Source of the DNA: Candidatus Staskawiczbacteria bacterium RIFOXYB1_FULL_38_37
Lineage (GTDB): Bacteria; Patescibacteriota; Minisyncoccia; Minisyncoccales; Staskawiczbacteraceae
NCBI GenBank assembly: GCA_001822075.1
Contig: MHPK01000001.1
Coordinates: forward strand, 22,757 to 86,756
Direction of reading: 5' to 3'
DNA: 64,000 nucleotides
Below the pieces are notes generated by a model. It worked only from the letters and a program-made list of their open reading frames with translations. It was not told where the DNA came from and made no database searches. Below, piece by piece: positions 3,001 to 59,740 of the stretch (position 1 is its first letter; each line of letters opens with the position of its first letter). The translations under genes were made by a program, and so were the position numbers.

Positions 3001-6000
3001 AAACTAATGTCGGCGCATTGGGAGCGGTGTTTGCGGGAGCTCCCCCGCTGTAAACTCCAATTATACCTGTGCCGTAAGAAGAATTGCCTGTGTCCTGATA
3101 GCCAGCCACAAAATTCGTGGTGTCAAGGGCCGCAACAGAAACATAGGCAGTAGAAGCTGAATTAAACGCAGCCTCATCTTCATAAGTAATGTCTGTTCCA
3201 GATATTGTGCCAGCTAAAGCTGTGCCATAAGAAGAGTTGCCTGTGTCTTGATAACCAGCTATAAAATGGGTGGAGTCAAGAGCTGAAACAGAAACATAGG
3301 CGGTAGCAGCTGAATTAAACGGATAGGCAGCGCCATAGGTTATTGTGGTTCCAGATACAGAGCCGATTGCAGCTGTGCCATATGTGTTTGAATCTGTATA
3401 TCCTACCACAAAGCTGGTGGCGCTGAGCTTGGTAAAAGAAATATAGGCCTGAACATCTAACGCAATCATATCTTTCTCTGTGCCATAGCTTATTGTTGTT
3501 CCATCTACTGTGCCGATTCTACTTCTGCCATAGGTGGCAAAAAACCCAAACACAAAACTGGTAGAGCTAAGAGCCGCGACAGAAACATAGGTAACTACTC
3601 CTGTACTAAATGTGGACTGAGTGCCATAACCAGTTATTGTTGTTCCAGATACAACTCCAACTATAGCATATCCCCTATTAGTTGCTGGAGGAACATTACT
3701 TTTGCACAAAACCACAAAATGTGTTGAGTCAAGGGCCGCGACAGAAATAGAAATAGAATTAGCATTAGTTACGGTGTTGAATACACTCTCTGCGCCATAA
3801 GAAGATATTGTTGTTCCAGATACTTCTCCAACTATAGCTGTGCCTACATCAGAGTTGCCTACATCTGAATAAGCAGCCACAAAATGGGTGGAGTCAAGAG
3901 CCGCGACAGAAATATAAGTAGTAGCAGCTGAGTTAAACGCAACCGGGGTGCCGTAACTTATTGTTGTTCCAGATATAGAGCCAACTACAGCTGTGCCATA
4001 TCCGGTTGAATCCCTGTATGCTATCACAAAACTTGTGGAAGTAAGCATGGCAGTAGAAACATAGGTGGTGGAAGCTGATGCGAATGCATTCTCAGCGCCG
4101 TAAGCTATATTGCTTGGGTCAACTATCCAATCAATATCAATGTCACCGCTTATAATCTTTAAGTCAAAAATGTCTGTGGGTGTTCCGAGATTAGTAAGCA
4201 AAATTCCATACATTCCCTCGTGATCTATGCTTTCAAAAGTTGCAACAAGCCCGCCTTGCGTCTGGTTGCCATCTTGGTCTTCATAAATAGGATACACTTC
4301 TATTGTTGCTGGCTGGCCTGGATTTGTTGGTTTAGCATAAATTGTATTGTCTTTTGTATTGTCTAATATTTGCTCAAAAGTAGCTCTAACATAGTGTCCA
4401 TTTGGAACTGTTGCCCATTGATTGTCTTGCGCCACTGTAAGGTCATAAATGTCAGCTACTATTTGCTGGTTTTCATCCATTTCAAATGCTTTGGAAATAA
4501 ATATGATTTCAAATATCTGTTCTGATAAGTGAGGCACTGTCCACTCCACATAATCTAACTTTCCGTTGTTATTGAGGTCAAATGCGTGGAATTCCATTTC
4601 AGCATAGCCATTATCCCGACAGGCTTCTGCCTGTCGTGGATCCTCGACTGCTTCGCAGTCGGGATTTTGCCACTTAATTTTGATTTTGCTTTCCTGTCCT
4701 ACTTTGTAAATTTCTGGAATTGTTGTGTAGGCTAATACATTTGTGATTGGTGGCTGGTCTGGCTGTTCTTCTGCTGAAATTGTAACCAGCTTTCCTTTGT
4801 CTGTTTCTTGTTCTGTGATTTCTGGCGCTGGGGTCTCGTAATCTACTTCAACATATTCTTCGGTTTCTTCTGATTGCTCTATTTCTACAACTTCCTGGTC
4901 TGTTGGAGTCGTTGTTTCAGTTAGTAATTCTCCTGGAAGCTGGATTATTTCCTGGTTAGAAAGAGACACAGGTTCTATGACTGGTATTTCTGGAAGCTCT
5001 GAAATGGCTTCTTGTTCTGACTCATCAATTTCTTCTTGCCGTTCGGATTCTGATTCTACAAACTCCTCTTCAATTGGCTCCTCGCCCGCCTGATTGTCCG
5101 CAGGACTTTCGGCGGGCTCGCCTAACTCAATATCCCCGCCTGAAGCTGCTGCATCATTGCGGGCAGGTTCAGAACTTTGGGCAGGTTCTTCTTCTGCAAT
5201 TTGTTCTTGGGGTTGCTCAGGTTCCTCGCCCGCCTGATTGTCCGCAGGGCTTTCGGCGGGTTGTTGAACTTCTGGTTCAGGCTCTTCTGCTGGAAGCGCT
5301 TCTGAAACATCAACAAACACAGCTTCATTTGTTTCTATAATTTCAGGCTGGGATTCTGCTATACTTTCTGTAATCTGGGCAACTGCGTTTTCTGCGGCTC
5401 CATGGACATCAGCGAGAAAAAATCTGTACACTTTAGACAAAAAATTCTTTGGCTCTGTTTTTGTAAGCTGTTTGCGCTCTTCTGCGGCAAACTGGAACTG
5501 GGAGGTTTCAGCCGAATAGTTTGCTATTGCCAAAGCTTCCTGCTTTGTAATTGATTTTACCTTGATATTCTGGGCGTTTTTCGGAAGCTGGACTAAGTTT
5601 GCGCCGGCTGTAATATCTGATTTTTTAATCACAGCTGACCATTTTACTGTTTGCCCCACAACAGCTGGCGAGGTTTGCTTTGTTAAAGCTGTTTTAATAA
5701 TCTGGCTTTGGCTTATCCGGGGTTTTGGCGAAACAAACCAGGCTGCGGTGAATAAAATACAAAGAGTTAACACAAAAACAGCTATTCCCTGCGCAACACA
5801 AAACGGCCTGAAAGACATATAAAAATTTTTGCCCCGCAGAATATAGGCCTGTTTTTTGATTTTATCTTTTAGAACAGCCAAGAGAGCAGTTGAGCGCTTT
5901 GAAAAGCGCAATTTAATCAACTTAATTTTTCTTTTTATTCTTCTTTTCCAGTATCTTAGGCAATATTTGAAAATCTTTTTTTGAGGCGCCAAAAATTCCC

Positions 6001-6055
6001 TGCTAATCAAAAAAAATCTTGCTTTTTTATTCTTTTTAAAAACTTTTTTTGCCAC
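35..6055 (-). CDS. Giant (2006 aa) membrane-anchored surface protein (putative adhesin)
   Basis: Single uninterrupted ORF. Basic N-terminus plus a TM helix (GIAVFVLTLCILFTAAWFV) is followed by an acidic E/P/Q-rich spacer and seven propeller-like repeats. Next come four Cys-containing Ig-like modules and a CarboxypepD_reg-like segment (GAEVTIYWLNPETKQFE...GKYSFLVPEGFYYIEVKAEGY). A C-terminal TM helix closes the protein. Confidence 0.8.
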   Translation of the reverse strand: MAKKVFKKNKKARFFLISREFLAPQKKIFKYCLRYWKRRIKRKIKLIKLRFSKRSTALLAVLKDKIKKQAYILRGKNFYMSFRPFCVAQGIAVFVLTLCILFTAAWFVSPKPRISQSQIIKTALTKQTSPAVVGQTVKWSAVIKKSDITAGANLVQLPKNAQNIKVKSITKQEALAIANYSAETSQFQFAAEERKQLTKTEPKNFLSKVYRFFLADVHGAAENAVAQITESIAESQPEIIETNEAVFVDVSEALPAEEPEPEVQQPAESPADNQAGEEPEQPQEQIAEEEPAQSSEPARNDAAASGGDIELGEPAESPADNQAGEEPIEEEFVESESERQEEIDESEQEAISELPEIPVIEPVSLSNQEIIQLPGELLTETTTPTDQEVVEIEQSEETEEYVEVDYETPAPEITEQETDKGKLVTISAEEQPDQPPITNVLAYTTIPEIYKVGQESKIKIKWQNPDCEAVEDPRQAEACRDNGYAEMEFHAFDLNNNGKLDYVEWTVPHLSEQIFEIIFISKAFEMDENQQIVADIYDLTVAQDNQWATVPNGHYVRATFEQILDNTKDNTIYAKPTNPGQPATIEVYPIYEDQDGNQTQGGLVATFESIDHEGMYGILLTNLGTPTDIFDLKIISGDIDIDWIVDPSNIAYGAENAFASASTTYVSTAMLTSTSFVIAYRDSTGYGTAVVGSISGTTISYGTPVAFNSAATTYISVAALDSTHFVAAYSDVGNSDVGTAIVGEVSGTTISSYGAESVFNTVTNANSISISVAALDSTHFVVLCKSNVPPATNRGYAIVGVVSGTTITGYGTQSTFSTGVVTYVSVAALSSTSFVFGFFATYGRSRIGTVDGTTISYGTEKDMIALDVQAYISFTKLSATSFVVGYTDSNTYGTAAIGSVSGTTITYGAAYPFNSAATAYVSVSALDSTHFIAGYQDTGNSSYGTALAGTISGTDITYEDEAAFNSASTAYVSVAALDTTNFVAGYQDTGNSSYGTGIIGVYSGGAPANTAPNAPTLVSPANGSYTTDTTPTLSANYSDPDVGDVGTTNYRISSSSLADCVSNTNIVASGTSSETADENEDTTWTNGSSIGNDATYYWCAQNNDGVDTSSWTQMGNFILDTAVAVPTVTSVGGDTSAPYSISDTSPEILITLDEAGDCYASETDEAYDDMSGDTNCTGDTTTSITCQMGTLAESASKTIYVACQDTAGNKDTIATNEEITMEIDATPPVPSNFSPASASTITDATPTITFDTDETADCFASTDGDETYDQMSDDTDCTVGTSTSHSCALGDLGADGAKTVYVACQDDTSVSPNKDTADTNETLTYTLDTTVPILTVTSVGGDTSAPYSISDTSPEILITLDEAGDCYASETDEAYDDMSGDTNCTGDTTTSITCQMGTLAESASKTIYVACQDTAGNKDTIATNEEITMEIDATPPTISGFNPAAGGVSSLPSSVSFTLNEAGYCRSSASDLSYSAMASADDCSGGGTTSITCSISGSSALSLSVNISCQDILENENTADNNTNLSYTLSSGGGGGGTFSWNPFAGQEQGSEAENILDNLDEAVDQIAQQITNQINNATEQISNLAEKAADFYKNTIINNFQEPEQVSFPPIEETVTPETPAALQNQWNLIQQKRFNEISILPLPDEIKQLALDFPSFQETLEKVGFTKPEDVEKIRVAKLSFPGLAETLGRVSAGINPSNFSIKDKIKMPTNFIFARVTEDKIDFKTKVSLASDNDVTKSITTLQNKPLYLIVKPDKPAKKVTGYIVFKSVSSESALKEFAAGLSPALSASLIDAFTLPQQPGQEIKATKELVLNKFEYQDSDKDGIYTATITSPAVAGKYEIKTIIDYISQDYSSAELNMIMVVDPEGYVYRKISDNDEARIKGAEVTIYWLNPETKQFEIWPAKDFQQENPQTTDNTGKYSFLVPEGFYYIEVKAEGYIPYKGDIFEVQEGSGVHTNIELKIANWWQRTFTIERVLLGLITILLLALLIVLSVIILKRKTQII
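1752..2678 (-). repeat. Two perfect 303-bp direct repeats (1752-2054 and 2376-2678, offset 624 bp) inside the giant gene
   Basis: Hand alignment of the two stretches shows identity breaking at 1751/2375 and 2055/2679. Both encode the identical module TVTSVGGDTSAPYSISDTSPEILITLDEAGDCYASETDEAYDDMSGDTNCTGDTTTSITCQMG...EIDATPP. A diverged third copy lies between them and a fourth lies downstream. Confidence 0.9.
3045..4102 (-). repeat. Seven tandem ~45-55-aa repeats (beta-propeller-like) within the giant gene
   Basis: Recurring pattern YG(A/T)..xF(N)SA.T.Y(V/I)SVAALDSTHFV.(A/G)Y.D....YGTA.(V/I)G..SGTTI(S/T) is seen seven times in the translation. Confidence 0.7.
5077..5260 (-). repeat. Two copies of a ~40-bp GC-rich hairpin-capable element, in frame, 144 bp apart
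   Basis: cctcgcccgcctgattgtccgcagg(a/g)ctttcggcggg occurs starting at 5080 and at 5224. Both copies translate as PAESPADNQAGEEP. Stem cccgcc/ggcggg. Confidence 0.8.
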
Positions 6056-6206
6056 AAAAATCCTTTATTTATATTGGTTCATTTTACCAAATTATAAACA
6101 AAAAAAATACACAATCGCCTGTGGATAACTTTAGGCTATTGGAAATAAAACAAAAAGCCCGTTGATATAATCTCGGGGTTTATAGAAAACTGATTTTTAA
6201 CCAGTT

Positions 6207-6470
6207 CTATTCGGTTTTTTTAGAAGCGGCGGCAACAGCGATGGCAACCTGCTCAGCCGCCTGGCCAACTGTGCGGATTTTTTCTACAACATCATCGGAA
6301 AGGTTAATTCCAAACTCTTCTTCAAGTTCCATTATTATTTCCACAGTATCAAGGGAATCAGCTAAAACATCTTCACTAAATCTGGTTTCAGGGGTAACCT
6401 CTTCTCTTTCTTTGCCAAAATACTCGCAAATTTTAGCAATAACGCGTTCCTGAATTGGCTCATCGCGCAT
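6207..6470 (-). CDS. acpP: Acyl carrier protein-like (87 aa)
   Basis: DSLDTVEIIMELEEEFGI matches the phosphopantetheine-attachment DSLD motif and helix II of ACPs. The start was moved to MRDEP (6470), which has AGGGAG 7 nt upstream. Confidence 0.75.
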   Translation of the reverse strand: MRDEPIQERVIAKICEYFGKEREEVTPETRFSEDVLADSLDTVEIIMELEEEFGINLSDDVVEKIRTVGQAAEQVAIAVAAASKKTE

Positions 6471-6851
6471 TTCTCGCTCCCTTCTTATAAAAAAAGAACA
6501 GCTTATGCCTGCTGCAACTTCAATTGAGGCAGACAATCATTATATTTTAGGTTACTGCTTTATTAAATTTTGTCAAACATTCATGAGATATTCAAACGTC
6601 AAAGGTATTCCAAAAAGCACAATAGCTGAAACAACAATAATAATCAAACCTGTTGACGTTGAAACTTCTTTCTTTAAATTCATATTATTTTTATTTAATT
6701 ATTTTTATTATATTATATTCTTTTATTTTTATCAATTTTTATTTATTCCAATCTTTTACTTACACGTCTACTTACATTATTTTCGCCCTAATTTTATTAT
6801 AAATCAATCAGAACGCGTTGTAAAACATATGTTTTGTGCTAAATTACAAGT

Positions 6852-8285
6852 ATGGATAAGTTCAATTTTTTAGCAAAAAATAAGTTAGACAACCTCCCGA
6901 AAACCAGCGGAGTATATTTGTTTTACGCCAAAAACAATAAAACGCCTATTTATATTGGCAAAGCAATAAGCATTAAAAATAGAGTAAAAAACCATTTTCA
7001 GGGAAAAAATTGGTGGGAGAAAACCCTCCTTCGCCAAGCCTGCCTGCCGGCAAGGCAGGGCTTCGGCGGGCAAGTTGGCTATTTTGAAACAAATTCTGAA
7101 ATTGAAGCATTAATTTTGGAAGCTAATTTAATCAAAAAATACCAGCCCAAATATAATGTAATGTGGCGGGACGATAAAAATTATTTTTATGTTGCCATCG
7201 CAAAAAATGAAAATGAAATTCCCTATGTGTTTATCACCCACCAGAAAAATCAAAAAAAGACTGAATACGTGGGTCCCTTCACAGAAGGCACGGCTCTTAA
7301 AAAAACTTTACGATTTTTAAGGCGAGCATTCCCCTATTATTCGATAAAAAAACATTCAAAATTAAAATGCGCATACTGCCATTTAGATTTATGTCCTGGT
7401 CCTTACGAACAATTGTTTGCGCCTCGCCTTGGCGGGCTCGGCGCGCCAAATGCGTTTGGCGAATACAAAAAAAATATCAAAAAATTAATTTTGATATTAA
7501 AAGGGAAAAGAAAAACTGTTTTAAATTCTCTTAGAAAAGAAATGAAACAGCTGGCAAAAAATAGAGAATTTGAAAAAGCCGGAAAAATCAGGGACGAAAT
7601 TTATGCTTTGCAGCAAGTTATGCAACATACTCATGTAATCAGCGGAAACGAAATCAGCGGAAACGAATATGACGAGTTTTTGCCGTACGGCAAAAACTCG
7701 TATTCACCCGGTTTTAAAACCCTGCAAAAAATTGTAGGAATAAAAAATGATATTAACAGAATAGAATGTTATGATGTTTCAAATATACAAGGAAAACAAG
7801 CCACGGGCTCTATGATTGTTTTTATAAACGGCAAACCGGACAAAAATCAGTACAGAAAATTCAGAATTAAAATGGAAAATGAGCCAAATGACATTGCAAT
7901 GTTAAAAGAAACAATCAGCAGGCGCTTGCAACATTCAGAATGGCCGTATCCTGAAATAATGCTTATTGATGGCGGAAAAGGCCAATTAAATGCCGCTATC
8001 GCGGCAAAATCCGAAATCCTAAATCCGAAATCCGAAACACCTGCCCGCATCGGCTGCGCCGAAGGCGTTGCAGGCGGGAATTCAAAATTCGAAATTCAAA
8101 ACATAAAAGTCGTATCCATTGCAAAAGGCGGGCAGGAGCTGTTTATTGAAGGCAAAAATAAACCCATTCCGCTTAAAAGTTTACCGCAGGAAATTTATAA
8201 TCTGATTTTGCAGTTAGACAGCGAAGCTCATCGGTTTGCAATAAGTTATCATAAAAATTTAAGAAAAAAGAACTTAATGCCTTAA
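6852..8285 (+). CDS. uvrC: Excinuclease ABC subunit C (short form, carrying repeat-derived insertions)
   Basis: N-terminal GIY-YIG motifs (SGVYLFY...PIYIGKA...RVKNHF) and a UVR motif (REFEKAGKIRDEIYALQ). C-terminal nuclease-half motif IECYDVSNIQG. No terminal (HhH)2 is evident. Confidence 0.85.
   Translation: MDKFNFLAKNKLDNLPKTSGVYLFYAKNNKTPIYIGKAISIKNRVKNHFQGKNWWEKTLLRQACLPARQGFGGQVGYFETNSEIEALILEANLIKKYQPKYNVMWRDDKNYFYVAIAKNENEIPYVFITHQKNQKKTEYVGPFTEGTALKKTLRFLRRAFPYYSIKKHSKLKCAYCHLDLCPGPYEQLFAPRLGGLGAPNAFGEYKKNIKKLILILKGKRKTVLNSLRKEMKQLAKNREFEKAGKIRDEIYALQQVMQHTHVISGNEISGNEYDEFLPYGKNSYSPGFKTLQKIVGIKNDINRIECYDVSNIQGKQATGSMIVFINGKPDKNQYRKFRIKMENEPNDIAMLKETISRRLQHSEWPYPEIMLIDGGKGQLNAAIAAKSEILNPKSETPARIGCAEGVAGGNSKFEIQNIKVVSIAKGGQELFIEGKNKPIPLKSLPQEIYNLILQLDSEAHRFAISYHKNLRKKNLMP
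7039..7074 (+). repeat. GC-rich composite element in frame in uvrC (palindrome cctgcctgccggcaaggcagg + ggcttcggcgggcaag)
   Basis: Translates as CLPARQGFGGQV within otherwise AT-rich uvrC. The palindrome recurs at 39662-39681 and the 16-mer recurs (reverse complement) at 45882-45897. Confidence 0.8.
8006..8102 (+). repeat. Composite insertion in uvrC: (aaatccga)x4, a GC-rich core, then (gaaattc/aaaattc) array
   Basis: aaaatccgaaatcctaaatccgaaatccgaaacacctgcccgcatcggctgcgccgaaggcgttgcaggcgggaattcaaaattcgaaattcaaaac. It stays in frame (KSEILNPKSETPARIGCAEGVAGGNSKFEIQN). Confidence 0.8.
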
Positions 8286-11717: not shown

Positions 11718-13424
11718 ATGATAAAAACAAACAGCGGTTATCAAAAAGATAATCCAAAAAATAATTTACGGATAATCCCTCTCGGAGGGTGCGAAGAAGT
11801 TGGAAGAAATATGACTGTTTTTGAATATGGAAACGATATTGTAATTTTGGATATGGGCCTGCAATTTCCGGAAGAAGATATGCCCGGAATTGATTATGTA
11901 ATTCCAAACATCGCTTATTTAAAAGGAAAAGAAAAAAATATCCGCGGAGTTATATTTTCCCACGGGCACTTAGACCACATTGGAGCAGCTCCAATACTTT
12001 TACAAAAATTAGGCAACCCCCAAATAATCGGCAGGCCCCTTACTTTGGAAATGGTAAAACACCGCGTAGAAGACACTTACAGGGGATCTGCAAAAAAATT
12101 AAAAACAATTTATATAAAAGATATCCAGCAAAAAATTCAGCTTGGCGCTTTTACTTTAAAATTTTTCCGAATTGACCACACAATTATGGACGCTGTCGGC
12201 ATAATTTTAGAAACTCCTGTAGCAACAGTAATACATCCTGGCGACTGGACAATAGAAAAAAATCCAATTGGAAGAAAAACCATAGATTATACACATTTAT
12301 CTAGACTGCCAAGACCAACAATTTTAATGCTTGAAGCTCTTGGATCGACAAACTCAAAAGAACCCGTTACAGAAGAAGAAATGTTAAAAAATCTTTATTC
12401 GCTTATGGAAAAAGCTCCGGGCCGGACAATTATTGCCACATTTTCCTCGCAGATTGAAAGAATAAAACAAATAATGGAATTTGCCACAAGAACAAACAGA
12501 AAAGTTGCCTTAGACGGTTTTTCAATGAAATTAAATATTGAGCTTGCAACAAAATTAGGTTATATAAAAATTCCTAAAGGAGTGATAATCACAACAGACA
12601 AGGCCCACAATTATCCTGACAATAAAATGATAATTGTCTGCACTGGAGCGCAAGGAGAAGAAATGGCTGCATTGCCAAGAATTGTTGCTGGGAATCACAA
12701 ACACATAAAAATTAAAAAAGAAGATACAGTAATTTTCTCTTCTTCTGTAATTCCCGGAAACGAACGAACTGTCCAAAGATTAAAAGACAATCTTTACCGC
12801 CAATCTGATTATGTTTACCATTCAGATATTATTGATGTGCATATGTCAGGACACGGAAACATTGAAGGCATAAAACAAATGCTTAGAGAAATCAGTCCTG
12901 ATTATTTCACTCCGGTTTATGGCAACCACTATATGCTTAAAGAAGCAGCTAAAATTGCCAGAGAAATTAATTTTAGAAAAGATAGAATTTTTGTGCCAGA
13001 CAACGGCTCTATAATAAGATTCACCAACCAGTCGGCTGAAATATTAAAAGAAAAAGTTCCTTCTAATTATATTTTTGTCGACGGACTTGGAGTTGGCGAT
13101 GTGGGTGAAATTGTTTTAAGAGACCGCCAAATGCTATCTGAAGACGGAATGTTTGTTATAGTAGCCGTGATAGACAGAAAAACCGGCAGAGTAATGGGTT
13201 CTCCCGACATAATTTCGCGCGGATTTGTTTATCTGAGAGAATCAAAAGATTTATTGTCGCAAACTCGAAAAAAAGTAATTGAAATTGTTGATAAATCAGC
13301 GGGCCACAACGGAGCTGTAAACTGGACTTACGTAAAAGACGAAATCCGCAACAAAGTCGGCGATTTCCTTCACACAAAAACCAGCCGCCGCCCCATGATT
13401 CTCCCCGTCGTCATCGAAGTCTAA
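11718..13424 (+). CDS. rnj: Ribonuclease J (beta-CASP metallo-beta-lactamase)
   Basis: HGHLDH motif, the IIPLGGCEEVGRNMTVFEY start typical of RNase J, and a length of 568 aa. Confidence 0.9.
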   Translation: MIKTNSGYQKDNPKNNLRIIPLGGCEEVGRNMTVFEYGNDIVILDMGLQFPEEDMPGIDYVIPNIAYLKGKEKNIRGVIFSHGHLDHIGAAPILLQKLGNPQIIGRPLTLEMVKHRVEDTYRGSAKKLKTIYIKDIQQKIQLGAFTLKFFRIDHTIMDAVGIILETPVATVIHPGDWTIEKNPIGRKTIDYTHLSRLPRPTILMLEALGSTNSKEPVTEEEMLKNLYSLMEKAPGRTIIATFSSQIERIKQIMEFATRTNRKVALDGFSMKLNIELATKLGYIKIPKGVIITTDKAHNYPDNKMIIVCTGAQGEEMAALPRIVAGNHKHIKIKKEDTVIFSSSVIPGNERTVQRLKDNLYRQSDYVYHSDIIDVHMSGHGNIEGIKQMLREISPDYFTPVYGNHYMLKEAAKIAREINFRKDRIFVPDNGSIIRFTNQSAEILKEKVPSNYIFVDGLGVGDVGEIVLRDRQMLSEDGMFVIVAVIDRKTGRVMGSPDIISRGFVYLRESKDLLSQTRKKVIEIVDKSAGHNGAVNWTYVKDEIRNKVGDFLHTKTSRRPMILPVVIEV

Positions 13425-13436
13425 ATTAAAGAAAAG

Positions 13437-13459
13437 CGGAGTCCCGGACTCCGTTTTTT
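13437..13459 (+). terminator. 17-nt perfect palindrome cggagtcCcggactccg + T-run. Serves as the rnj terminator and as copy 1 of the RAYT-flanking palindrome
   Basis: Lies 13 nt after the rnj stop and 19 nt beyond the RAYT stop. The central base is inverted relative to copies 2 and 3. Confidence 0.75.
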
Positions 13460-13471
13460 ACCGTTTTTTAA

Positions 13472-14182
13472 TTACTCTAATAAAATTGCCTGATGCTGAC
13501 TTAACTTTCTTTTATATTCAATCCAATTCTCAATTGCCTCCTTACATCCAACTACTCCATTCAATGTTTCTGATAAAAATTTCCTTTCTGTAACCGATGG
13601 AAAATTATTTTCACCAATATAATCGCTATAACTCGACCATTTATAATCTTCTAAAAAACTTACCGCCTTATCTAAATTATCAATTCCATTTTCTTTCCAT
13701 CCTGGTTCAATTAAAGATATAGGATTTACATGGATATAATTAAAAATTGTTCTTAATTGATTATCGTCTCCGATAGGAACAGAACGGAATCTATTTTGAA
13801 AAACATAACCTTTGCGTTTATATTTTCTGTTAAAATATCCAGCATAACCCGAACCCGATTTATTCATAAACTTAACTATTCCGCCATTTTTTACCTGCTT
13901 TAACAATAAATGAATGTGATTTGGCATAAAACAAAATGCCAATATATCCACTAGTTTTTCCCTTTTATCAACCACGGAGTCCGGGACTCCGCTGGTTTTT
14001 TCACGCTTCCTTTCCTCCCTTCTTTTTCTAATTTCTATGTGCTTGGCATTATTGAACTCGTAGATAGAAAAAATGCCACGATAATAATCGTTTATATCTT
14101 TAAAAATTAAACTGTCATCTAATCCGCGTATAATAATATGATAAATTTCGTCGTTGGTGAATTGTTCTTTTCTTTGTGGCAT
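13472..14182 (-). CDS. IS200/IS605-like Y1 (HUH) transposase, RAYT-like
   Basis: HUH motif in FCFMPNHIHLLL and a catalytic-Tyr region FNYIHVNPI. The N-terminus MPQRKEQFTNDEIYHIIIRG is typical of COG1943 proteins. No second IS gene (tnpB) is present. Confidence 0.8.
   Translation of the reverse strand: MPQRKEQFTNDEIYHIIIRGLDDSLIFKDINDYYRGIFSIYEFNNAKHIEIRKRREERKREKTSGVPDSVVDKREKLVDILAFCFMPNHIHLLLKQVKNGGIVKFMNKSGSGYAGYFNRKYKRKGYVFQNRFRSVPIGDDNQLRTIFNYIHVNPISLIEPGWKENGIDNLDKAVSFLEDYKWSSYSDYIGENNFPSVTERKFLSETLNGVVGCKEAIENWIEYKRKLSQHQAILLE
13975..13991. repeat. Copy 2 of palindrome cggagtccgggactccg, inside the RAYT ORF (in frame, ...TSGVPDSV...)
   Basis: Exact 17-mer. The extended match caaccacggagtccgggactccgctgg compares with caactgcggagtccgggactccgcttg at 14227-14253. 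Confidence 0.85.
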
Positions 14183-14232
14183 ATTTCTATTATAGCAAAA
14201 AATCATAAAAAGTGGCCAACCACGGTCAACTG

Positions 14233-14249
14233 CGGAGTCCGGGACTCCG
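14233..14249. repeat. Copy 3 of palindrome cggagtccgggactccg, 51 nt upstream of the RAYT start
   Basis: Exact 17-mer read from the sequence. Confidence 0.85.
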
Positions 14250-14414
14250 CTTGCTTCTATTTAATTTGTAAAAAAGAAGCCGGCTGAGATTTCTCGTGAG
14301 AGATTTCTCAATCGGCTTTTTGGTAGGCGCAGAGCAGATGCTTCCCCATCTTTACACTCACCCATGTAGGCGTGAGCTTAAACGAAAAAAGGGTGCTTTA
14401 CTTCTGTTGCGCCA

Positions 14415-14750
14415 TCAGCCTTTATCGTGCACTATCGCGACCTTGACGTGTTCAAACCAACCGTCGTGCATCTTGTGCGAACCAAACAAATCCTCGTCTT
14501 GCCAATTTCCACGGACTTCCATTTCGTCTAAGTCATAAAATCCGCAGAGTTCAACGGCACAAGGACTGCCCAAATCGAAGTGTATTTTTCCAACTCCGAC
14601 TACACGGGCATTACGATTACGAGGGATCATCTGACTCAAACCACGCCAAGTATAGTTACCTGCGAGGCAAAAGAAAACGATTGTGGCAGTCATGACATTT
14701 TCTTCAACCACGATGCCCCTTTTCAACAATTTCAACTCATTCAATCGCAT
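14415..14750 (-). CDS. Hypothetical protein (111 aa) in a GC-enriched islet
   Basis: Preferred over the overlapping plus-strand ORFs for three reasons. Its composition is more protein-like. AAAGGTG lies 5 nt before the ATG, with TTGACA-N17-TATTAT further upstream on the minus strand. A hairpin plus T-run lies downstream (14271-14320). No family was recognised. Confidence 0.45.
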   Translation of the reverse strand: MRLNELKLLKRGIVVEENVMTATIVFFCLAGNYTWRGLSQMIPRNRNARVVGVGKIHFDLGSPCAVELCGFYDLDEMEVRGNWQDEDLFGSHKMHDGWFEHVKVAIVHDKG

Positions 14751-14912
14751 ACAACACCTTTCACGGTTAACGCACCGTTTAAGCGTGCCAACTCTAAGGT
14801 TAGCAAGGGGTTAAGGTACTATATTAATAATACACCCATTATATAATATTGTCAAGTCTTTCCCCTTCCCTGCAATGGTGGTAGAATTAAATAATTAAAA
14901 ATGTAAAATATC

Positions 14913-15893
14913 ATGAGAATATTTTCTGGAATAAGGCCAACAGGCAACATTCATATAGGAAATTATTTGGGAGCCGTAAAACAATGGATTGAACTGCAGG
15001 AAAAAAACGAATGCGTTTTTTGCATAGTTGATATGCATGCGGTCACAACTCCTTACGACCCCAAAGAAATGAAAAAAAATATTTTGGAGGCAGCTTCAAT
15101 TTATTTGGCCGCCGGAGTCAACCCCGACAAATCAATAATTTTTGTCCAGTCAGATGTGAGAGAACATGTGGAACTGGCTTGGCTTTTAGGAGCAATTACT
15201 CCAATGGGCGAACTTTCAAGAATGACCCAATTTAAAGAAAAATCAAAACAGCACAAAGATTATATAAATGCCGGATTATTTAATTATCCTGTGTTAATGG
15301 CAGCTGATATAATGCTTTACAAAACACAGGCGGTTCCTGTAGGTAAAGACCAAGAACAGCATGTTGAGCTGACCAGAACAATTGCCAGAAAATTTAACCA
15401 GAAATTCGGACAAACTTTTCCCGAACCGGAAGCAATTTTGCCAAAGGCGGGAGCTAAAATAATGAGCTTGCAAAACCCTAAAAAGAAAATGTCAAAAACA
15501 GACGAATCAAAAAGCTATATCTCGCTTTTTGACACAGAAGAAGAAATAGAAAAGAAAATAATGTCAGCTACAACCGATTCTGGAAAAGGAGTTATTTATA
15601 ATGTTACAAAAAAACCCGGCATTTCAAACCTTTTGACAATTTACAGTTTGCTAGACGGCAGGACAATCCAGGAAATTGAAAAAGAATTTAAGGGCAAAGG
15701 ATACGGCGACTTTAAAAAATCTCTGGCAAAAGTTTTAATTAATTATTTAGAACCGTTCCGCAGAAAACAAAAAGAGCTTCTTACAAGAGAAGTTTATGTG
15801 CAGGAAATTTTGAACAAAGGAAAATCAAGGGCCGAAGTTATTGCAAAAACAACAATGCAGGAAGTAAAAGAAAAAATGGGCCTGACGTCATAA
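14913..15893 (+). CDS. trpS: Tryptophan--tRNA ligase
   Basis: Class I signatures PTGNIHIGNYLGA (HIGH-like) and KMSKT, with a typical 326-aa TrpRS layout. Confidence 0.95.
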   Translation: MRIFSGIRPTGNIHIGNYLGAVKQWIELQEKNECVFCIVDMHAVTTPYDPKEMKKNILEAASIYLAAGVNPDKSIIFVQSDVREHVELAWLLGAITPMGELSRMTQFKEKSKQHKDYINAGLFNYPVLMAADIMLYKTQAVPVGKDQEQHVELTRTIARKFNQKFGQTFPEPEAILPKAGAKIMSLQNPKKKMSKTDESKSYISLFDTEEEIEKKIMSATTDSGKGVIYNVTKKPGISNLLTIYSLLDGRTIQEIEKEFKGKGYGDFKKSLAKVLINYLEPFRRKQKELLTREVYVQEILNKGKSRAEVIAKTTMQEVKEKMGLTS

Positions 15894-22389: not shown

Positions 22390-23397
22390 TTAGGCTTGTT
22401 CAAAAGATAATTTTTTTATTTTTTCCATTGCTTCTTTATGCTCTTTTAAATATGCTTTTGCGGCTTCTGTGCCCTGCCCGATTTTTTCACCCTCAAATGT
22501 AAAAAAGCTCCCTGATTGTTTTATTAATCCTGTGGTTAAACCCGCCCTTAAAGCATCTCCCGACTTTGAAATTCCCTCGTTATAATAAATATCAAATTCA
22601 GCTGTTCTAAATGGAGCGGCTACTTTGTTTTTTACAACTTTTACTTTTACCCTGTTGCCGATAATTTCATCACCCGACTTTATTTGCGCGGTTCTTGTTA
22701 AATTAATTCTTACAGAAGCGTAAAATTTTAAAGCTAAACCTCCCGGCGTTGTTTCCGGATTTCCAAAAACCATTCCTATTTTCATTCTGGTCTGGTTTAA
22801 AAATATAACCATTGTATTTGATTTTGCCATAATTCCTGAAAGTTTTCTGCACGCCTGCGACATTAATCTTGCCTGAAGCCCCATATGCTGGTCGCCAATT
22901 TCTCCCTCAATTTCCCGTTGCGGAGTTAAAGCCGCCACAGAATCAACCACTATAACATCTATATTTCCGCTCTTTACAAGCGTCTCAACAATTTGCAAGG
23001 CCTGCTCTCCTGAATCCGGCTGTGAAATAAGCAGGTTGTCAACATCAACGCCAATTCTTTTTGCATAATCGGGGTCCATTGCATGCTCTGCGTCAATAAA
23101 TGCGCATGTGCCTCCTTTTTTTTGCGCCTCAGCTATAATGTGCAAAGACAAAGTTGTTTTACCAGACGACTCGGTTCCATATATTTCTATTATTCTGCCC
23201 CTTGGCATTCCGCCAACTCCCAAAGCCATATCCATTGCAATTGAACCTGTGGGGACTACGTCAACATTAACTGCGTGTATTTCGCGCATTGTCATAATTG
23301 CTCCCTCGCCAAACCTTTCTTTAATTTCATCAACTGCATTCTGTATCGCCTTATTTTCCTTTTTTATTTCTAATTTATCTTTTTTATCTTTAGCCAT
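22390..23397 (-). CDS. recA: Recombinase RecA
   Basis: Walker [20 protein letters not shown] and the L2 region [20 protein letters not shown]. Confidence 0.97.
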
Positions 23398-39604: not shown

Positions 39605-40585
39605 TTATTTATTTATTCTTGAAACTCTTGTAAATCCAGAGCACGTTACAATTTCAATTCCCCTGCCTGCCGGCAGGCAGGTTGCCTTTTCAAGTTCGTC
39701 CATCAATAAATTTACGCCCAAAGAATCAGACGAAATGTGGCCTGCAATTACAATATTTATGTGCGAGGCCTCTGCCTCTTTTTTATGCTCTTCTGAAATG
39801 TGCATGCCAACTACTGTTCCGATGCCTGCCTGCGCCATTTTTTCATAAAGCTTTGGCGATCCTTCAGTTCCTCCTGTAATTTCAGCCATTGATATTTTAC
39901 CACAGCGGTTGTCAGCAGAGCCCACAAAAATTTTAGGGCCGACTCCGATTTTCATTGCCTCTTTATATTCTGGAATTTCTTTTAATATGCTTATTAAGTC
40001 AGAAACTCTTTCAACTTCTTTGCCTTCAATTAAATCTTTTAAAAATTTAGCAGCTAAATTGTCGCAGGGAGTGTGCGAGTTCATTAAGTTAACTTTCATT
40101 AATCTGGCGGCGTCAACTGTTCTGTTGTGGTTTGAACTGTTTACCCCTCGAGCAACTTCTGAAATTCTTTCTCTCATCAATCCCTCTGAAATGTTGATTG
40201 GCACTCCGTAATAAGCTAAAACATCGCACTGCAAATCCATAACATCAGCCAATTGCGCCAAACCCTTGCCCACAGGATGATGGGCAATTACCAAATCAAT
40301 ATCTCCTAATTGCTTTGCCATTAAAATTTCTTCGGGGCCTATGTCAATGCCAACCAAAACTTTTTTAATATCTTTATCGTCTGAAATATTATAAACTCCT
40401 GAATCCAAATACGGATTTTCTAAAGCATCTTTATCAAAGTCTTCTTTTTCTATTTCTGAAAGCTTTTCAAATTTATCTTTTTTCCTATCTAAAAATTTTC
40501 GCACTCCGTCTGCGCCCCTGAAATCAGCTTCCGTGCCCATTTTTATCATTAAATTGTAAATATCTTGTATTCGCATAATTTTCAA
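39605..40585 (-). CDS. NIF3/YbgI-family (DUF34) dinuclear-metal protein, long form
   Basis: The DLVIAHHPVG and IAGHISSDSLG motifs resemble NIF3 metal-binding His clusters. A C-terminal GC-rich palindrome is inserted in frame. Confidence 0.55.
   Translation of the reverse strand: MKIMRIQDIYNLMIKMGTEADFRGADGVRKFLDRKKDKFEKLSEIEKEDFDKDALENPYLDSGVYNISDDKDIKKVLVGIDIGPEEILMAKQLGDIDLVIAHHPVGKGLAQLADVMDLQCDVLAYYGVPINISEGLMRERISEVARGVNSSNHNRTVDAARLMKVNLMNSHTPCDNLAAKFLKDLIEGKEVERVSDLISILKEIPEYKEAMKIGVGPKIFVGSADNRCGKISMAEITGGTEGSPKLYEKMAQAGIGTVVGMHISEEHKKEAEASHINIVIAGHISSDSLGVNLLMDELEKATCLPAGRGIEIVTCSGFTRVSRINK
39662..39681. repeat. Perfect 20-nt palindrome cctgcctgccggcaggcagg, in frame in the NIF3-like gene
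   Basis: Translates (minus strand) as ...CLPAGRG.... Same family as 7039-7059 in uvrC. Confidence 0.85.
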
Positions 40586-50532: not shown

Positions 50533-50591
50533 CAGAGCACAGACGCTTTCACGTCTGTGCTCGGCCGAGCACTCGTTTAGCGAGTGCTCTG
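50533..50591 (-). promoter_or_regulatory. Twin GC-rich hairpins with four alternating GAGCAC/GTGCTC arms (alternative-pairing architecture)
   Basis: CAGAGCACagacgctttcacgtctGTGCTCggccGAGCACtcgtttagcgaGTGCTCTG lies between the SEDS gene stop and the 599-aa gene start. Confidence 0.5.
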
Positions 50592-51735: not shown

Positions 51736-52356
51736 TTAATAATTTTTGGAACTCTCTCTTTCTTTTTCTATCTGTTCTTCAAATGATATTATTGGTAAAA
51801 ACCTGAGAGAATTAATCCTTCTCTCTATATTTTCATTGGCGTCCTCCTCAACACAACTTTTTTCTGTTAATAATTGTATTATTTCTTTTAATTTTTCTTT
51901 TACCTTTTCAATATCTTTATCGTGAACGATAATTCCCCTAATTGCGTCTGGTCCGACCCCTTTTATTAAAAACTCTGCATTGTTTGGGTGTTTTGAATTT
52001 GGTCTAAATGTTTTAGAACGTTCTATTGACTTATCGATTATGTAAATAATATTATTTTCTCCGCCAAATTCTTTTAATGAGGCGACATTTTATGTTAAAT
52101 TTCCCTTACCCAAAGAAACTCTATCAGAACGATGAGATTTATGAATAACTCCATCGTTTCTTTCCTTAGAAGATTGTCCTACTTTTTCCCTATCTTTTTC
52201 CGGCCTTAAACCATGAATTAAAGTAAAATCCATCGCTTCTATCGGCTCACCGCGCATAAAAGTTTCATGATTGATTTCAATTAATTTTTCGAATTTTTCT
52301 TGTTCTGATTGTTCGTATCTTATTTCTGACATAATGTTATCATCGCTTAGTACCAC
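51736..52356 (-). pseudogene. Hypothetical gene interrupted by a single in-frame TAA (88 codons + TAA + 117 codons)
   Basis: After the TAA at 52090-52092 the same frame stays open to 51736 (NVASLKEFGGENNIIYIIDKS...EKERESSKNY). That continuation has no ATG/GTG/TTG start near its beginning. Confidence 0.45.
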
Positions 52357-52374
52357 GGACTGGTCCGTGGTACT
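52349..52374. repeat. 26-nt palindrome agtaccacggactggtccgtggtact, 17 nt downstream of the TrpR-like gene
   Basis: 12-bp arms read directly from the sequence. Confidence 0.85.
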
Positions 52375-52391
52375 ACATTTTAAAATTTTAT

Positions 52392-52907
52392 TTATTTTTT
52401 TCGATTAAGACAAGCCGAGGGTGTAAACAACAAAGCTTCTTTTTCCAATTCTTTCTCATTAGTTTCCAGTTTTTCTAATGCAACATCCAATAAATTTTCA
52501 AGCAGAAAGTATCCAGGATATTTTCTTTTTACTGCCTCAAGTGGAGAAATGCTTCTAATATTATCTTTTTTAATCTTTTTTAATCTTTTTTTGCGGTCTT
52601 CAATTAATCTTTTTATAATTATCTTATATCCGCTGTCATCTTGCAATAAATTCTTCTGCACATTTGTAATTTTGGACTTTCCTACGCCCATTAAAACAGC
52701 TATCTCGTCATAAGTAAATTTCGCGGACAATAGTACTGCTATTTCAATTCTTCTCATTAAAGTTGCTATCTCGTCTGCGGACAATAAACTTTTGAAAAAG
52801 AAACGAACTTCATTTCTGTCTTTTAAATAGGCGATTGTATCATAAAATTCGCCAATCATTTGAATCCTTTTATTTTTCGGCATCTCGTTTAAATGAAATA
52901 CTGGCAT
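52392..52907 (-). CDS. TrpR-like / YerC-YecD family HTH protein (171 aa)
   Basis: FFKSLLSADEIATLMRRIEIAVLLSAKFTYDEIAVLMGVGKSKITNVQKNL resembles the Trp-repressor-fold YerC/YecD family. Confidence 0.65.
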   Translation of the reverse strand: MPVFHLNEMPKNKRIQMIGEFYDTIAYLKDRNEVRFFFKSLLSADEIATLMRRIEIAVLLSAKFTYDEIAVLMGVGKSKITNVQKNLLQDDSGYKIIIKRLIEDRKKRLKKIKKDNIRSISPLEAVKRKYPGYFLLENLLDVALEKLETNEKELEKEALLFTPSACLNRKK

Positions 52908-52916
52908 AAATTTTTT

Positions 52917-52942
52917 AGTACCACCGACTGGTCGGTGGTACT
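52917..52942. repeat. 26-nt palindrome agtaccaccgactggtcggtggtact, 10 nt upstream of the TrpR-like gene
   Basis: Differs from the 52349 copy by a compensatory pair (cggac/gtccg versus ccgac/gtcgg). Confidence 0.85.
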
Positions 52943-52990: not shown

Positions 52991-55021
<2,031 letters not shown>

Positions 55022-59711: not shown

Positions 59712-59740
59712 AGATAGACGTCGGACGTCTATCTGTTTTT
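59712..59740 (+). terminator. 23-nt palindrome agatagacgtcggacgtctatct + T-run (plus-strand terminator-like)
   Basis: 11-bp arms with the central motif gtcggac shared with the ligA palindromes. No annotated plus-strand gene lies upstream. Confidence 0.4.

Follow-up and report, generated by a model that had tools for sequence, protein, structure and literature searches.

Why should a transposase-like gene carry the same short palindrome ahead of its promoter, behind its stop codon and, for a third time, in frame within its own coding sequence? This question is raised by a 64-kb stretch of DNA (64,000 nt, hereafter the window; positions 22,757 to 86,756 of contig MHPK01000001.1, assembly GCA_001822075.1) from Candidatus Staskawiczbacteria bacterium RIFOXYB1_FULL_38_37, in which a minus-strand gene located between trpS and rnj is accompanied by three copies of the 17-mer palindrome CGGAGTCCNGGACTCCG. 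In a first-pass annotation of this sequence the gene product was compared to the RAYTs, i.e. the tyrosine transposases associated with repetitive extragenic palindromes (REPs), and this interpretation proved to be essentially right. Based on the findings of the current study, we consider it probable that the gene encodes a RAYT-type (class 2 TnpA-Y1) HUH/tyrosine enzyme of single-stranded DNA (ssDNA) within a minimal REPtron, a layout in which such a gene is flanked by its own specific hairpins, and that the hairpin inside the gene represents an ancient REP that is tolerated in frame. In this minimal REPtron one cognate hairpin is positioned upstream of the promoter-like site, one after the stop codon and one in frame in the loop that connects helix αB to strand β2 of the protein.

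The gene and its three palindromes

Exact matches to the 17-mer were found in the window at 13437-13453 (centre C), 13975-13991 (centre G) and 14233-14249 (centre G) only, where none would be expected by chance (100 dinucleotide shuffles). No fourth copy was detected in the window even when 3 mismatches were allowed, and a looser core, GAGNNCNGNNCTC, returned the same three sites and no others. The features of the locus, in window coordinates, are as follows:

13437..13453, no strand: downstream hairpin copy, 18 nt past the stop codon of the RAYT-type gene
13472..14182, minus strand: coding sequence of a predicted 236-amino acid (aa) class-2 Y1/HUH (RAYT-type) enzyme; the mechanical open reading frame (ORF) reaches 14206
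13975..13991, no strand: in-frame internal hairpin copy, encoding SGVPDS, residues 64-69 of the 236-aa protein
14189..14218, minus strand: promoter-like site TGGCCA-18-(TG)TATAAT, a consensus match only
14232..14250, no strand: upstream hairpin copy, a 19-nt perfect palindrome that abuts the -35 element of the promoter-like site

The three sites, and the placement of the outer copies beyond the stop codon and before the start codon, agree with the first-pass annotation, while its distances of 19 and 51 nt are corrected here to 18 and 50 nt, the latter being measured from the 17-mer (49 nt from the 19-nt palindrome). The internal copy is indeed read through in frame, being translated without a stop codon as AGC GGA GTC CCG GAC TCC (S-G-V-P-D-S). 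Folding predictions for ssDNA give each copy a stem of 7-8 bp closed by a 3-nt loop, with energies of -9.1 to -10.7 kcal/mol (z -3.9 to -5.1); the single-stranded 21-mer form of the hairpin is AGCGGAGTCCCGGACTCCGCT.

Together with its flanking A/T runs the downstream copy obtains a terminator score on both strands, and it can therefore also end rnj; in accordance with the earlier proposal that it doubles as the rnj terminator, it would appear to be a bidirectional terminator-like element shared with that gene. All three copies are terminator-like on the plus strand, which is the antisense strand in the case of the internal copy and which continues there into CTGGTTTTTT. The 5' flank of internal copies is A-rich (5.0 A in 10 nt, compared to 3.3-4.7 in the other copy classes), an enrichment so modest that A-run/T-run flanks were rejected as proof that the internal copy is a terminator. 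An Rfam scan of positions 13300-15000 returned no RNA family. The upstream copy had furthermore been described as inverted, a claim that carries little weight as it depends on a single central base, which is flipped in the downstream copy of a 96%-identical orthologue (L161). The orientation of the upstream, internal and downstream copies varies among loci (+ + - in L002 and L003; - + + in L005 and L056), and copy orientation was thus rejected as a defining feature.

The true start of the gene is the ATG at 14182, yielding a protein of 236 aa, since every homologue begins with MP[YQ]RKEQF. The protein matches the Pfam family Y1_Tnp (PF01797) above its cut-off (E=5.7e-11), and both its HUH motif (N96-H97-I-H99) and its tyrosine motif (Y157-I-H-V-N161-P162; residue numbers of the two motifs follow the 244-aa ORF, Y157 corresponding to Y149 of the 236-aa protein) are invariant in 26 homologues. 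In an AlphaFold2 model with a predicted local distance difference test (pLDDT) score of 77, the HUH motif is situated on strand 97-104 and Y157 on helix 148-165, and the protein therefore displays the HUH on a β-strand, the single C-terminal-helix tyrosine and the α/β Y1 fold by which the HUH Y1 superfamily is defined. Among structures in the PDB, Escherichia coli TnpA-REP (4ER8) ranked above ISDra2 TnpA in a profile search, and it was also the best Foldseek match to the model (4er8_A, E=5e-6, template modelling (TM) score 0.64), followed by the TnpA proteins of IS608 and ISDra2; the top eight Foldseek matches (E<=0.001) are all Y1 transposases (4er8, 2a6m, 2vjv, 2xma). The hairpin-encoded peptide is located in a loop that is predicted to be disordered (pLDDT<50), between the basic helix αB (EIRKRREERKRE) and strand β2 and ahead of the HUH strand. 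No helix-turn-helix (HTH) family was detected by Pfam in the 236-aa protein.

The tyrosine motif, YIHVNP, carries the Y---NP signature of class 2 TnpA-Y1 proteins (TnpA-REP), class 1 IS200 proteins being characterised by Y---Q (Quentin et al. 2018, PMC6006769). Among the neighbours of the gene, which are rnj, a 111-aa ORF and trpS, tnpB is absent, and a tblastn search against plasmids returned only matches of <=36% identity, labelled 'transposase'; the best (Acetoanaerobium, L201) is unannotated. The Y---NP motif, 4ER8 as the best structural match, the absence of tnpB and, as detailed below, the lack of near-identical paralogues and the presence of the gene at the same syntenic site in six genomes support the assignment of the product as a RAYT-type rather than an IS200-type Y1 enzyme, thereby substantiating the tnpB-free, RAYT-like transposase of the first-pass annotation.

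The -10 box of the promoter-like site ends 6 nt before the ATG, which suggests that the mRNA of the RAYT-type gene may be leaderless, and the promoter motif ttgcTATAATagaaatATG (TG-extended -10 TATAAT) is kept in the syntenic orthologues L161, L191 and L002. The upstream hairpin is positioned just upstream of the -35 element, and outside this likely leaderless transcript.

The hairpin layout across the homologue family

At E<=1e-5, 1861 homologues of the 236-aa protein were retrieved, and the source names among 120 listed homologues all belong to the Patescibacteria group (Staskawiczbacteria, Parcubacteria etc.), the family being, as sampled, confined to Patescibacteria. Layout statistics were obtained from 80 homologue loci of GTDB species representatives which, with the window, make up 81 loci. 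A strong GC-rich hairpin is present in the variable αB-β2 linker in 55 of the 81, and imperfect internal copies that match their own flanks occur in 13 further loci, so that an internal hairpin is found in ~68/81 (~84%). Ten loci with an intact ORF possess flanking hairpins and no internal copy, and three are devoid of hairpins altogether. The best hairpin of the whole gene falls within codons 55-95 in 59/81 loci, the mean score of the linker hairpin is 12.0 versus 3.3 after codon shuffling, and in 48 of 52 loci the second base of a codon forms the centre of the internal hairpin.

The sequence of the hairpin varies between genomes, yet it agrees among the positions within one locus. Of the 55 strong loci, 47 (85%) have the same 17-nt core (<=1 mismatch) again no more than 120 nt from a gene end, 32 of them at both ends, and a locus-specific hairpin fills the upstream position in 39 and the downstream position in 40 of these 55; as a control, the core of one locus was found to match the flanks of another in 1.8% of pairs. 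In most loci the hairpins are located 0-75 nt from both gene ends. Since flanking and internal hairpins co-vary with the gene in ~60 other loci, the palindromes are best read as cognate REP-like hairpins of the enzyme, and the REPtron layout is present in the window as well as family-wide. In a large Patescibacteria branch of the RAYTs this layout is the usual one, a conserved hallmark and not an oddity. The first-pass annotation had called a REP inside a RAYT gene unusual, an assessment which we would revise as the arrangement has a precedent in subclass 2.4 (Quentin et al. 2018, PMC6006769) and is the rule in this family. It had also reasoned that occurrence at these three sites only would amount to a local duplication: the restriction to three sites holds in the window, but the conservation of the layout across the family shows the inference of a local duplication to be wrong.

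These data also bear on the proposition that the protein has no functional link to the three palindromes, these being either the product of a local triplication or hairpins of an ordinary terminator or structural kind. The terminator-like character of all three copies on the plus strand and the confinement of the 17-mer to this gene within the window would be in line with such a proposition. However, it is already contradicted by the frequency of matches between loci (1.8%) as opposed to within a locus (85%), by the conserved position and frame of the internal copy and by the concerted change of the three copies at an orthologous locus (see below); a chance triplication, moreover, cannot recur with different sequences in ~60 species, and we regard this explanation as scarcely credible.

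The internal hairpin is found in both orientations, which encode unrelated peptides (G-x-P-x-S and R-E-R-V-S-D), and selection therefore acts on the DNA rather than on the peptide; on comparison of the loci, the conserved feature is the DNA hairpin. The hairpin-encoded peptide, with its two unrelated versions and its predicted disorder, was accordingly rejected as a selected feature. The hairpins share an architecture that consists of a variable lower stem (often with AGCT or GTAG...CTAC as outer feet), an inner GAG[AG]/[CT]CTC and an apex N-C-N-G-N, and in several loci they form inverted doublets similar to REPINs (REP doublets forming hairpins). In perfect-palindrome REPs, the loop bases are critical for recognition (PMC8266576), and the conserved C-N-G apex fits such a role. 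Metagenome-assembled genomes (MAGs) carry between one and five copies of the gene, with pairwise identities of 51-79% and a separate hairpin for each paralogue, and no paralogue pair exceeded 79% identity in any genome examined.

The constancy of the internal copy invites an alternative in which it is a selected cis element, acting either as a binding site (in ssDNA or mRNA) through which the expression of its own gene is limited or as an antisense intrinsic terminator. This alternative is compatible with the RAYT interpretation, the one point of difference being what the internal copy does, and it draws on the retention of the same position and frame in ~84% of loci while the family has diverged to ~50% identity, on hairpin nucleotides that are identical between orthologues at a synonymous divergence (dS) of ~1, on the terminator-like score of the antisense strand and on the A-rich 5' flank mentioned above. 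The value of that flank is, however, modestly above those of the other classes, ten loci have lost the internal hairpin while retaining the ORF and the flanking hairpins, and hairpins of the same architecture are present in frame in the unrelated ligA, from which it follows that mere loop tolerance suffices. A switch in the 5' untranslated region is not indicated since the likely leaderless transcript does not include the upstream hairpin. On balance, a selected cis element appears unlikely, and a tolerated in-frame REP remains the preferred reading of the internal copy.

Inheritance at the rnj-trpS site

The gene is located between trpS and rnj in six genomes, namely those of the window, L161 (96% protein identity), L191 (81%), L002 (71%), L003 (70%) and L202, and protein identity at this syntenic site ranges from 69 to 100%. 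In five of these the hairpin present at all three positions reads as follows:

Window, L161 and L191: AGCGGAGTCCCGGACTCCG
L003: AGCGGAGACCCGTTCTCCGC
L002: AGCGGAAGCCCGTCTTCCGCT

As all three positions read alike in each genome, unlike between genomes, the three copies have changed in concert at the orthologous trpS-gene-rnj site. The upstream and internal copies also share sequence past the palindrome, in the form of a 30-nt identical tract in L002 and of ...CTCCGTGGTT in L161. The ratio of non-synonymous to synonymous substitution rates (dN/dS) among the syntenic orthologues is 0.08-0.15, which places the protein under purifying selection. The window and L191 differ to saturation at synonymous sites (dS ~1.0) and nevertheless have the same 17-mer at each of the three positions, an identity that is taken to indicate constraint at the nucleotide level and/or ongoing homogenisation of the hairpins.

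The cassette is missing from the rnj-trpS spacer (13425-14912 in the window) in three related genomes. In L203, rnj and trpS are joined by a clean 23-nt junction (5726-5748) with neither gene nor hairpin; in L204, the 1.1-kb spacer (5681-6756) has a solitary hairpin, CGAGGTCTGACCTCG, and no RAYT gene; and in L205, the spacer (5741-6971) is occupied by a PaaX_M-like gene and small ORFs. The rnj-trpS spacer is thus a variable spot among Staskawiczbacteria, at which loss or gain of the cassette does occur.

This pattern must be considered in relation to the possibility that the entire hairpin-gene-hairpin unit (~0.8 kb) is an autonomous IS200-like insertion sequence (IS) whose subterminal ends are the palindromes. 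The closeness of hairpins to both gene ends in most loci, the presence of the cassette in six related genomes and its absence from three at the same site, including the clean empty junction of L203, and the up to five copies per MAG are features that such an element might display. Against these stand the divergence of copies within one genome (<=79% identity, whereas copies of IS200-type subclass 1.1 average 99.4%; PMC6006769), the conservation of the syntenic site at 69-100% protein identity and a dN/dS of ~0.1, the class 2 motif Y---NP in place of Y---Q, the occurrence of solo hairpins away from any such gene, including inside ligA, and the absence of tnpB. An autonomous IS is consequently regarded as very improbable, and we return to a resident RAYT-type gene with cognate hairpins.

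Within the same spacer of the window, the 111-aa ORF (14415..14750, minus strand) belongs to no Pfam family; beyond it come a terminator-like hairpin and a non-coding stretch (14270-14413). This stretch is ~78% conserved in L204 and partly conserved in L205, both of which are without the RAYT gene, and it has no Rfam match. The spacer of L204 contains a different repeat, GAGGAGCCAGCAGGCGACG[TC]GGCAATC, which is present twice (~5740-5830 and ~6660-6700), and GCCCGTCCGAAGCC is also repeated there.

Related hairpins, proposed mechanism and known systems

It had been suggested that the gene drives at least one hairpin family of the window. This could not be upheld, as both the 17-mer and its loose core are restricted to the gene, and the hairpins that do occur elsewhere, in ligA and at 59.7 kb, possess other stems:

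54482..54534, no strand: hairpin doublet with 12-bp stems and apex TCGGA, in frame in ligA (ORF 52991..55018, minus strand)
59712..59734, no strand: solitary intergenic hairpin of the same architecture, AGATAGACG-TCGGA-CGTCTATCT = AGATAGACGTCGGACGTCTATCT

The ligA doublet is composed of two 25-nt perfect hairpins, GGTGGGGTGTC-G-GACACCCCACC, which occupy different reading frames as read from the sequence, and its translation is a 12-aa insertion missing from the LigA orthologues P0128 and P0129, the closest ones without it (83-84% identity). Different short insertions are present in the same LigA loop in other lineages, and no target-site rule is readable from the insertion boundaries, the surrounding loop being variable. 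The core of the doublet, GGGGTGTCGGACACCCC, is that of the RAYT-associated hairpin of locus L061; its stem family is unlike the 17-mer, and a gene cognate to it is absent from the window. The window likewise lacks a cognate gene for the hairpin at 59712-59734, which is similar in apex and architecture to hairpins that accompany RAYT genes in L065 and L052. In about a dozen other loci, distant copies are found 0.4-2.4 kb from the gene, and at least 13 low-GC metagenome contigs carry the identical 17-mer at non-RAYT sites, e.g. after a ClpB-like gene and inside long ORFs; of the at least 119 metagenome matches to the 17-mer, most among the matches listed are chance matches in high-GC contigs. 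Hairpins of this architecture can thus move or be duplicated, and proteins can acquire them as in-frame decorations.

If the enzyme behaves like E. coli TnpA-REP and IS608 TnpA, it would bind the folded hairpin on ssDNA, reading the GAG/CTC inner stem and the C-N-G apex, and would cut and rejoin the DNA near the foot of the hairpin by way of a 5'-phosphotyrosine link, whereby hairpins may be copied or replaced. The in-gene copy would then derive from an ancient in-frame REP insertion in a tolerant loop. Its constant position and frame, as opposed to the different frames of the two ligA hairpins, point to a single origin, and it might be kept matched to the flanking copies if hairpins are replaced or undergo gene conversion while selection favours those that the co-evolving enzyme recognises.

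Several observations weigh against this reading. The activity of the enzyme on hairpins is extrapolated from E. coli TnpA-REP, IS608 and ISDra2 (PMC8266576). The protein scores 44.6 bits against the NCBIfam RAYT equivalog NF047646, below the cut-off of 80, and residues E100, H101 and R104, with which the E. coli enzyme contacts GTAG, are not kept. The window hairpin has (A)GCGG as its foot rather than the canonical 5' GT[AG]G, GTAG...CTAC double feet being limited to some relatives (L015, L021, L040 and L071). The ten loci that have lost the internal copy while keeping an intact ORF and the flanking hairpins argue that this copy is dispensable. The 17-mer is not dispersed within the 64-kb window, which leaves a REP population of this enzyme in this genome hypothetical; low abundance would not be unusual, since RAYT groups 1 and 4 have only 12-14 copies of their flanking 16-mers (Bertels et al., PMC5581495). 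Strict vertical inheritance fails, given that three related genomes lack the cassette, and a swap of the whole cassette by recombination, rather than hairpin-by-hairpin replacement, could explain the concerted change.

A further possibility, to which we assign a low likelihood, is that the in-gene hairpin is a functional 'self-substrate', serving as an autoregulatory site and/or as a reference copy by which the enzyme and its hairpin population are matched through in-place replacement. If this were true, each of the >1800 ORFs would constitute a ready-made enzyme-substrate pair that is readable from a 1-kb metagenome contig, and the in-place overwriting of hairpins would become a demonstrable mode of REP turnover.

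With E. coli TnpA-REP (RAYT, YafM; PDB 4ER8; Ton-Hoang 2012, Messing 2012, Corneloup 2021), the best PDB match, the window protein shares the Y1 HUH fold, the Y---NP motif, the status of a low-copy resident gene flanked by cognate hairpins and the existence of divergent paralogues with their own hairpin families. Identity between the two is ~13%, and the window protein is longer (236 vs 165 aa) owing to an extra N-terminal helix, the basic αB and a long helical WSSY tail, with FQ in place of the WQ of the E. coli enzyme. The hairpins of the window family are near-perfect symmetric palindromes with a C-N-G apex, whereas E. coli REPs have bulged stems and a 5' GTAG, and unlike the E. coli REPtron the 64-kb window has no hundreds of dispersed copies and carries a hairpin inside the gene.

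In this last respect the family resembles subclass 2.4 (Bertels group 4; Quentin, Siguier, Chandler & Fichant 2018, PMC6006769), which alone among the groups described combines flanking REPs with REPs that interrupt tnpAREP in frame. The REPs of that subclass are 'double-foot' symmetric and often start with GTAGAGAC, a beginning shared by the hairpins of L021, L071 and L011; further likenesses are the HuH motif NH[IFV]H (NHIH in the window) and the low abundance of the flanking repeats. In contrast, the in-gene REP of subclass 2.4 is placed between HuH and Y, while that of the window family invariably precedes HuH and is placed at the end of αB; the motifs are WQ and YIxNNP as opposed to FQ and YIH[VAT]NP; the proteins have a median of 194 aa and no tail, as opposed to 236 aa and the WSSY C-terminal tail in the window protein; and the hosts are Cyanobacteria or Bacteroidetes rather than Patescibacteria. 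Judged by published motifs alone, the window family would thus not belong to subclass 2.4. Its closest motifs are those of subclass 2.1, the terminal-inverted-repeat-associated tyrosine transposases (TIRYT; Bertels group 1), which have the FQ variant, a Y[IV]HLNP-like motif, a median of 238 aa and a proximal tail with conserved serines, so that at the protein level the family looks most like this subclass in published motif tables. Subclass 2.1 is, however, reported to be without REP-like hairpins, having terminal inverted repeats, and to possess a distal HTH/DnaA_C-like domain, whereas the window family has hairpins.

The TnpA proteins of the IS200/IS605 group (IS608, ISDra2) resemble the window protein in their HUH/Y1 fold, their recognition of subterminal hairpins in ssDNA and their similar-sized, hairpin-bracketed gene, but their Y---Q motif, multiple near-identical copies and often adjacent tnpB are all lacking in the window family. 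Intragenic REPs have been described in host genes, including that of DNA ligase (Di Nocera et al. 2013, PMC3733652), and like the Rickettsia palindromic elements (Ogata et al.) they are in-frame palindromes in tolerant loops, often of replication or repair genes, which matches both the ligA doublet and the in-gene copy. Such elements are sporadic in host genes, whereas in the window family the hairpin resides in the enzyme's own gene, at a fixed position and co-varying with the flanks.

The manner in which RAYTs move or maintain REPs is still poorly understood, and experiments have established the rules of recognition for no more than three enzyme/REP pairs (PMC8266576). The family described here represents a natural data set of such pairs, with 1861 homologues, lineage-specific hairpins and a cognate hairpin within the ORF in ~68 of 81 loci, and its small REPtrons (three hairpins in the window) and tiny host genomes could make testable the covariation of protein residues with stem and apex bases, the concerted replacement of hairpins and the in-frame decoration of host proteins such as LigA. 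This study extends REP/RAYT systems to Patescibacteria; no description of RAYTs or REPs in Patescibacteria or the candidate phyla radiation was found in the searchable literature, which is not proof of novelty. Relative to the precedent of subclass 2.4, it adds a variant of an in-gene REP arrangement that was reported once before, in other bacteria, and a clear case of concerted hairpin evolution.

Other palindromes were observed in the window. Two related palindromes of 26-28 nt, at 52348-52375 (TAGTACCACGGAC..GTCCGTGGTACTA) and 52917-52942 (AGTACCACCGAC..GTCGGTGGTACT), bracket a gene for a 171-aa protein of the Trp_repressor family (52392..52907, minus strand; Pfam E=1.6e-13). The palindrome CCTGCCTGCCGGCA(A)GGCAGG is present twice (7039-7059 and 39662-39681), and with a near-identical relative ~127 nt upstream of the gene in the unrelated Patescibacteria locus L018 it may constitute another dispersed palindrome family. 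Finally, a short spacer between two minus-strand genes (50535-50589) contains three overlapping GC-rich hairpins, GAGCACAGACG.., GTGCTCGGCCGAGCAC and GAGCACTCG..CGAGTGCTC.

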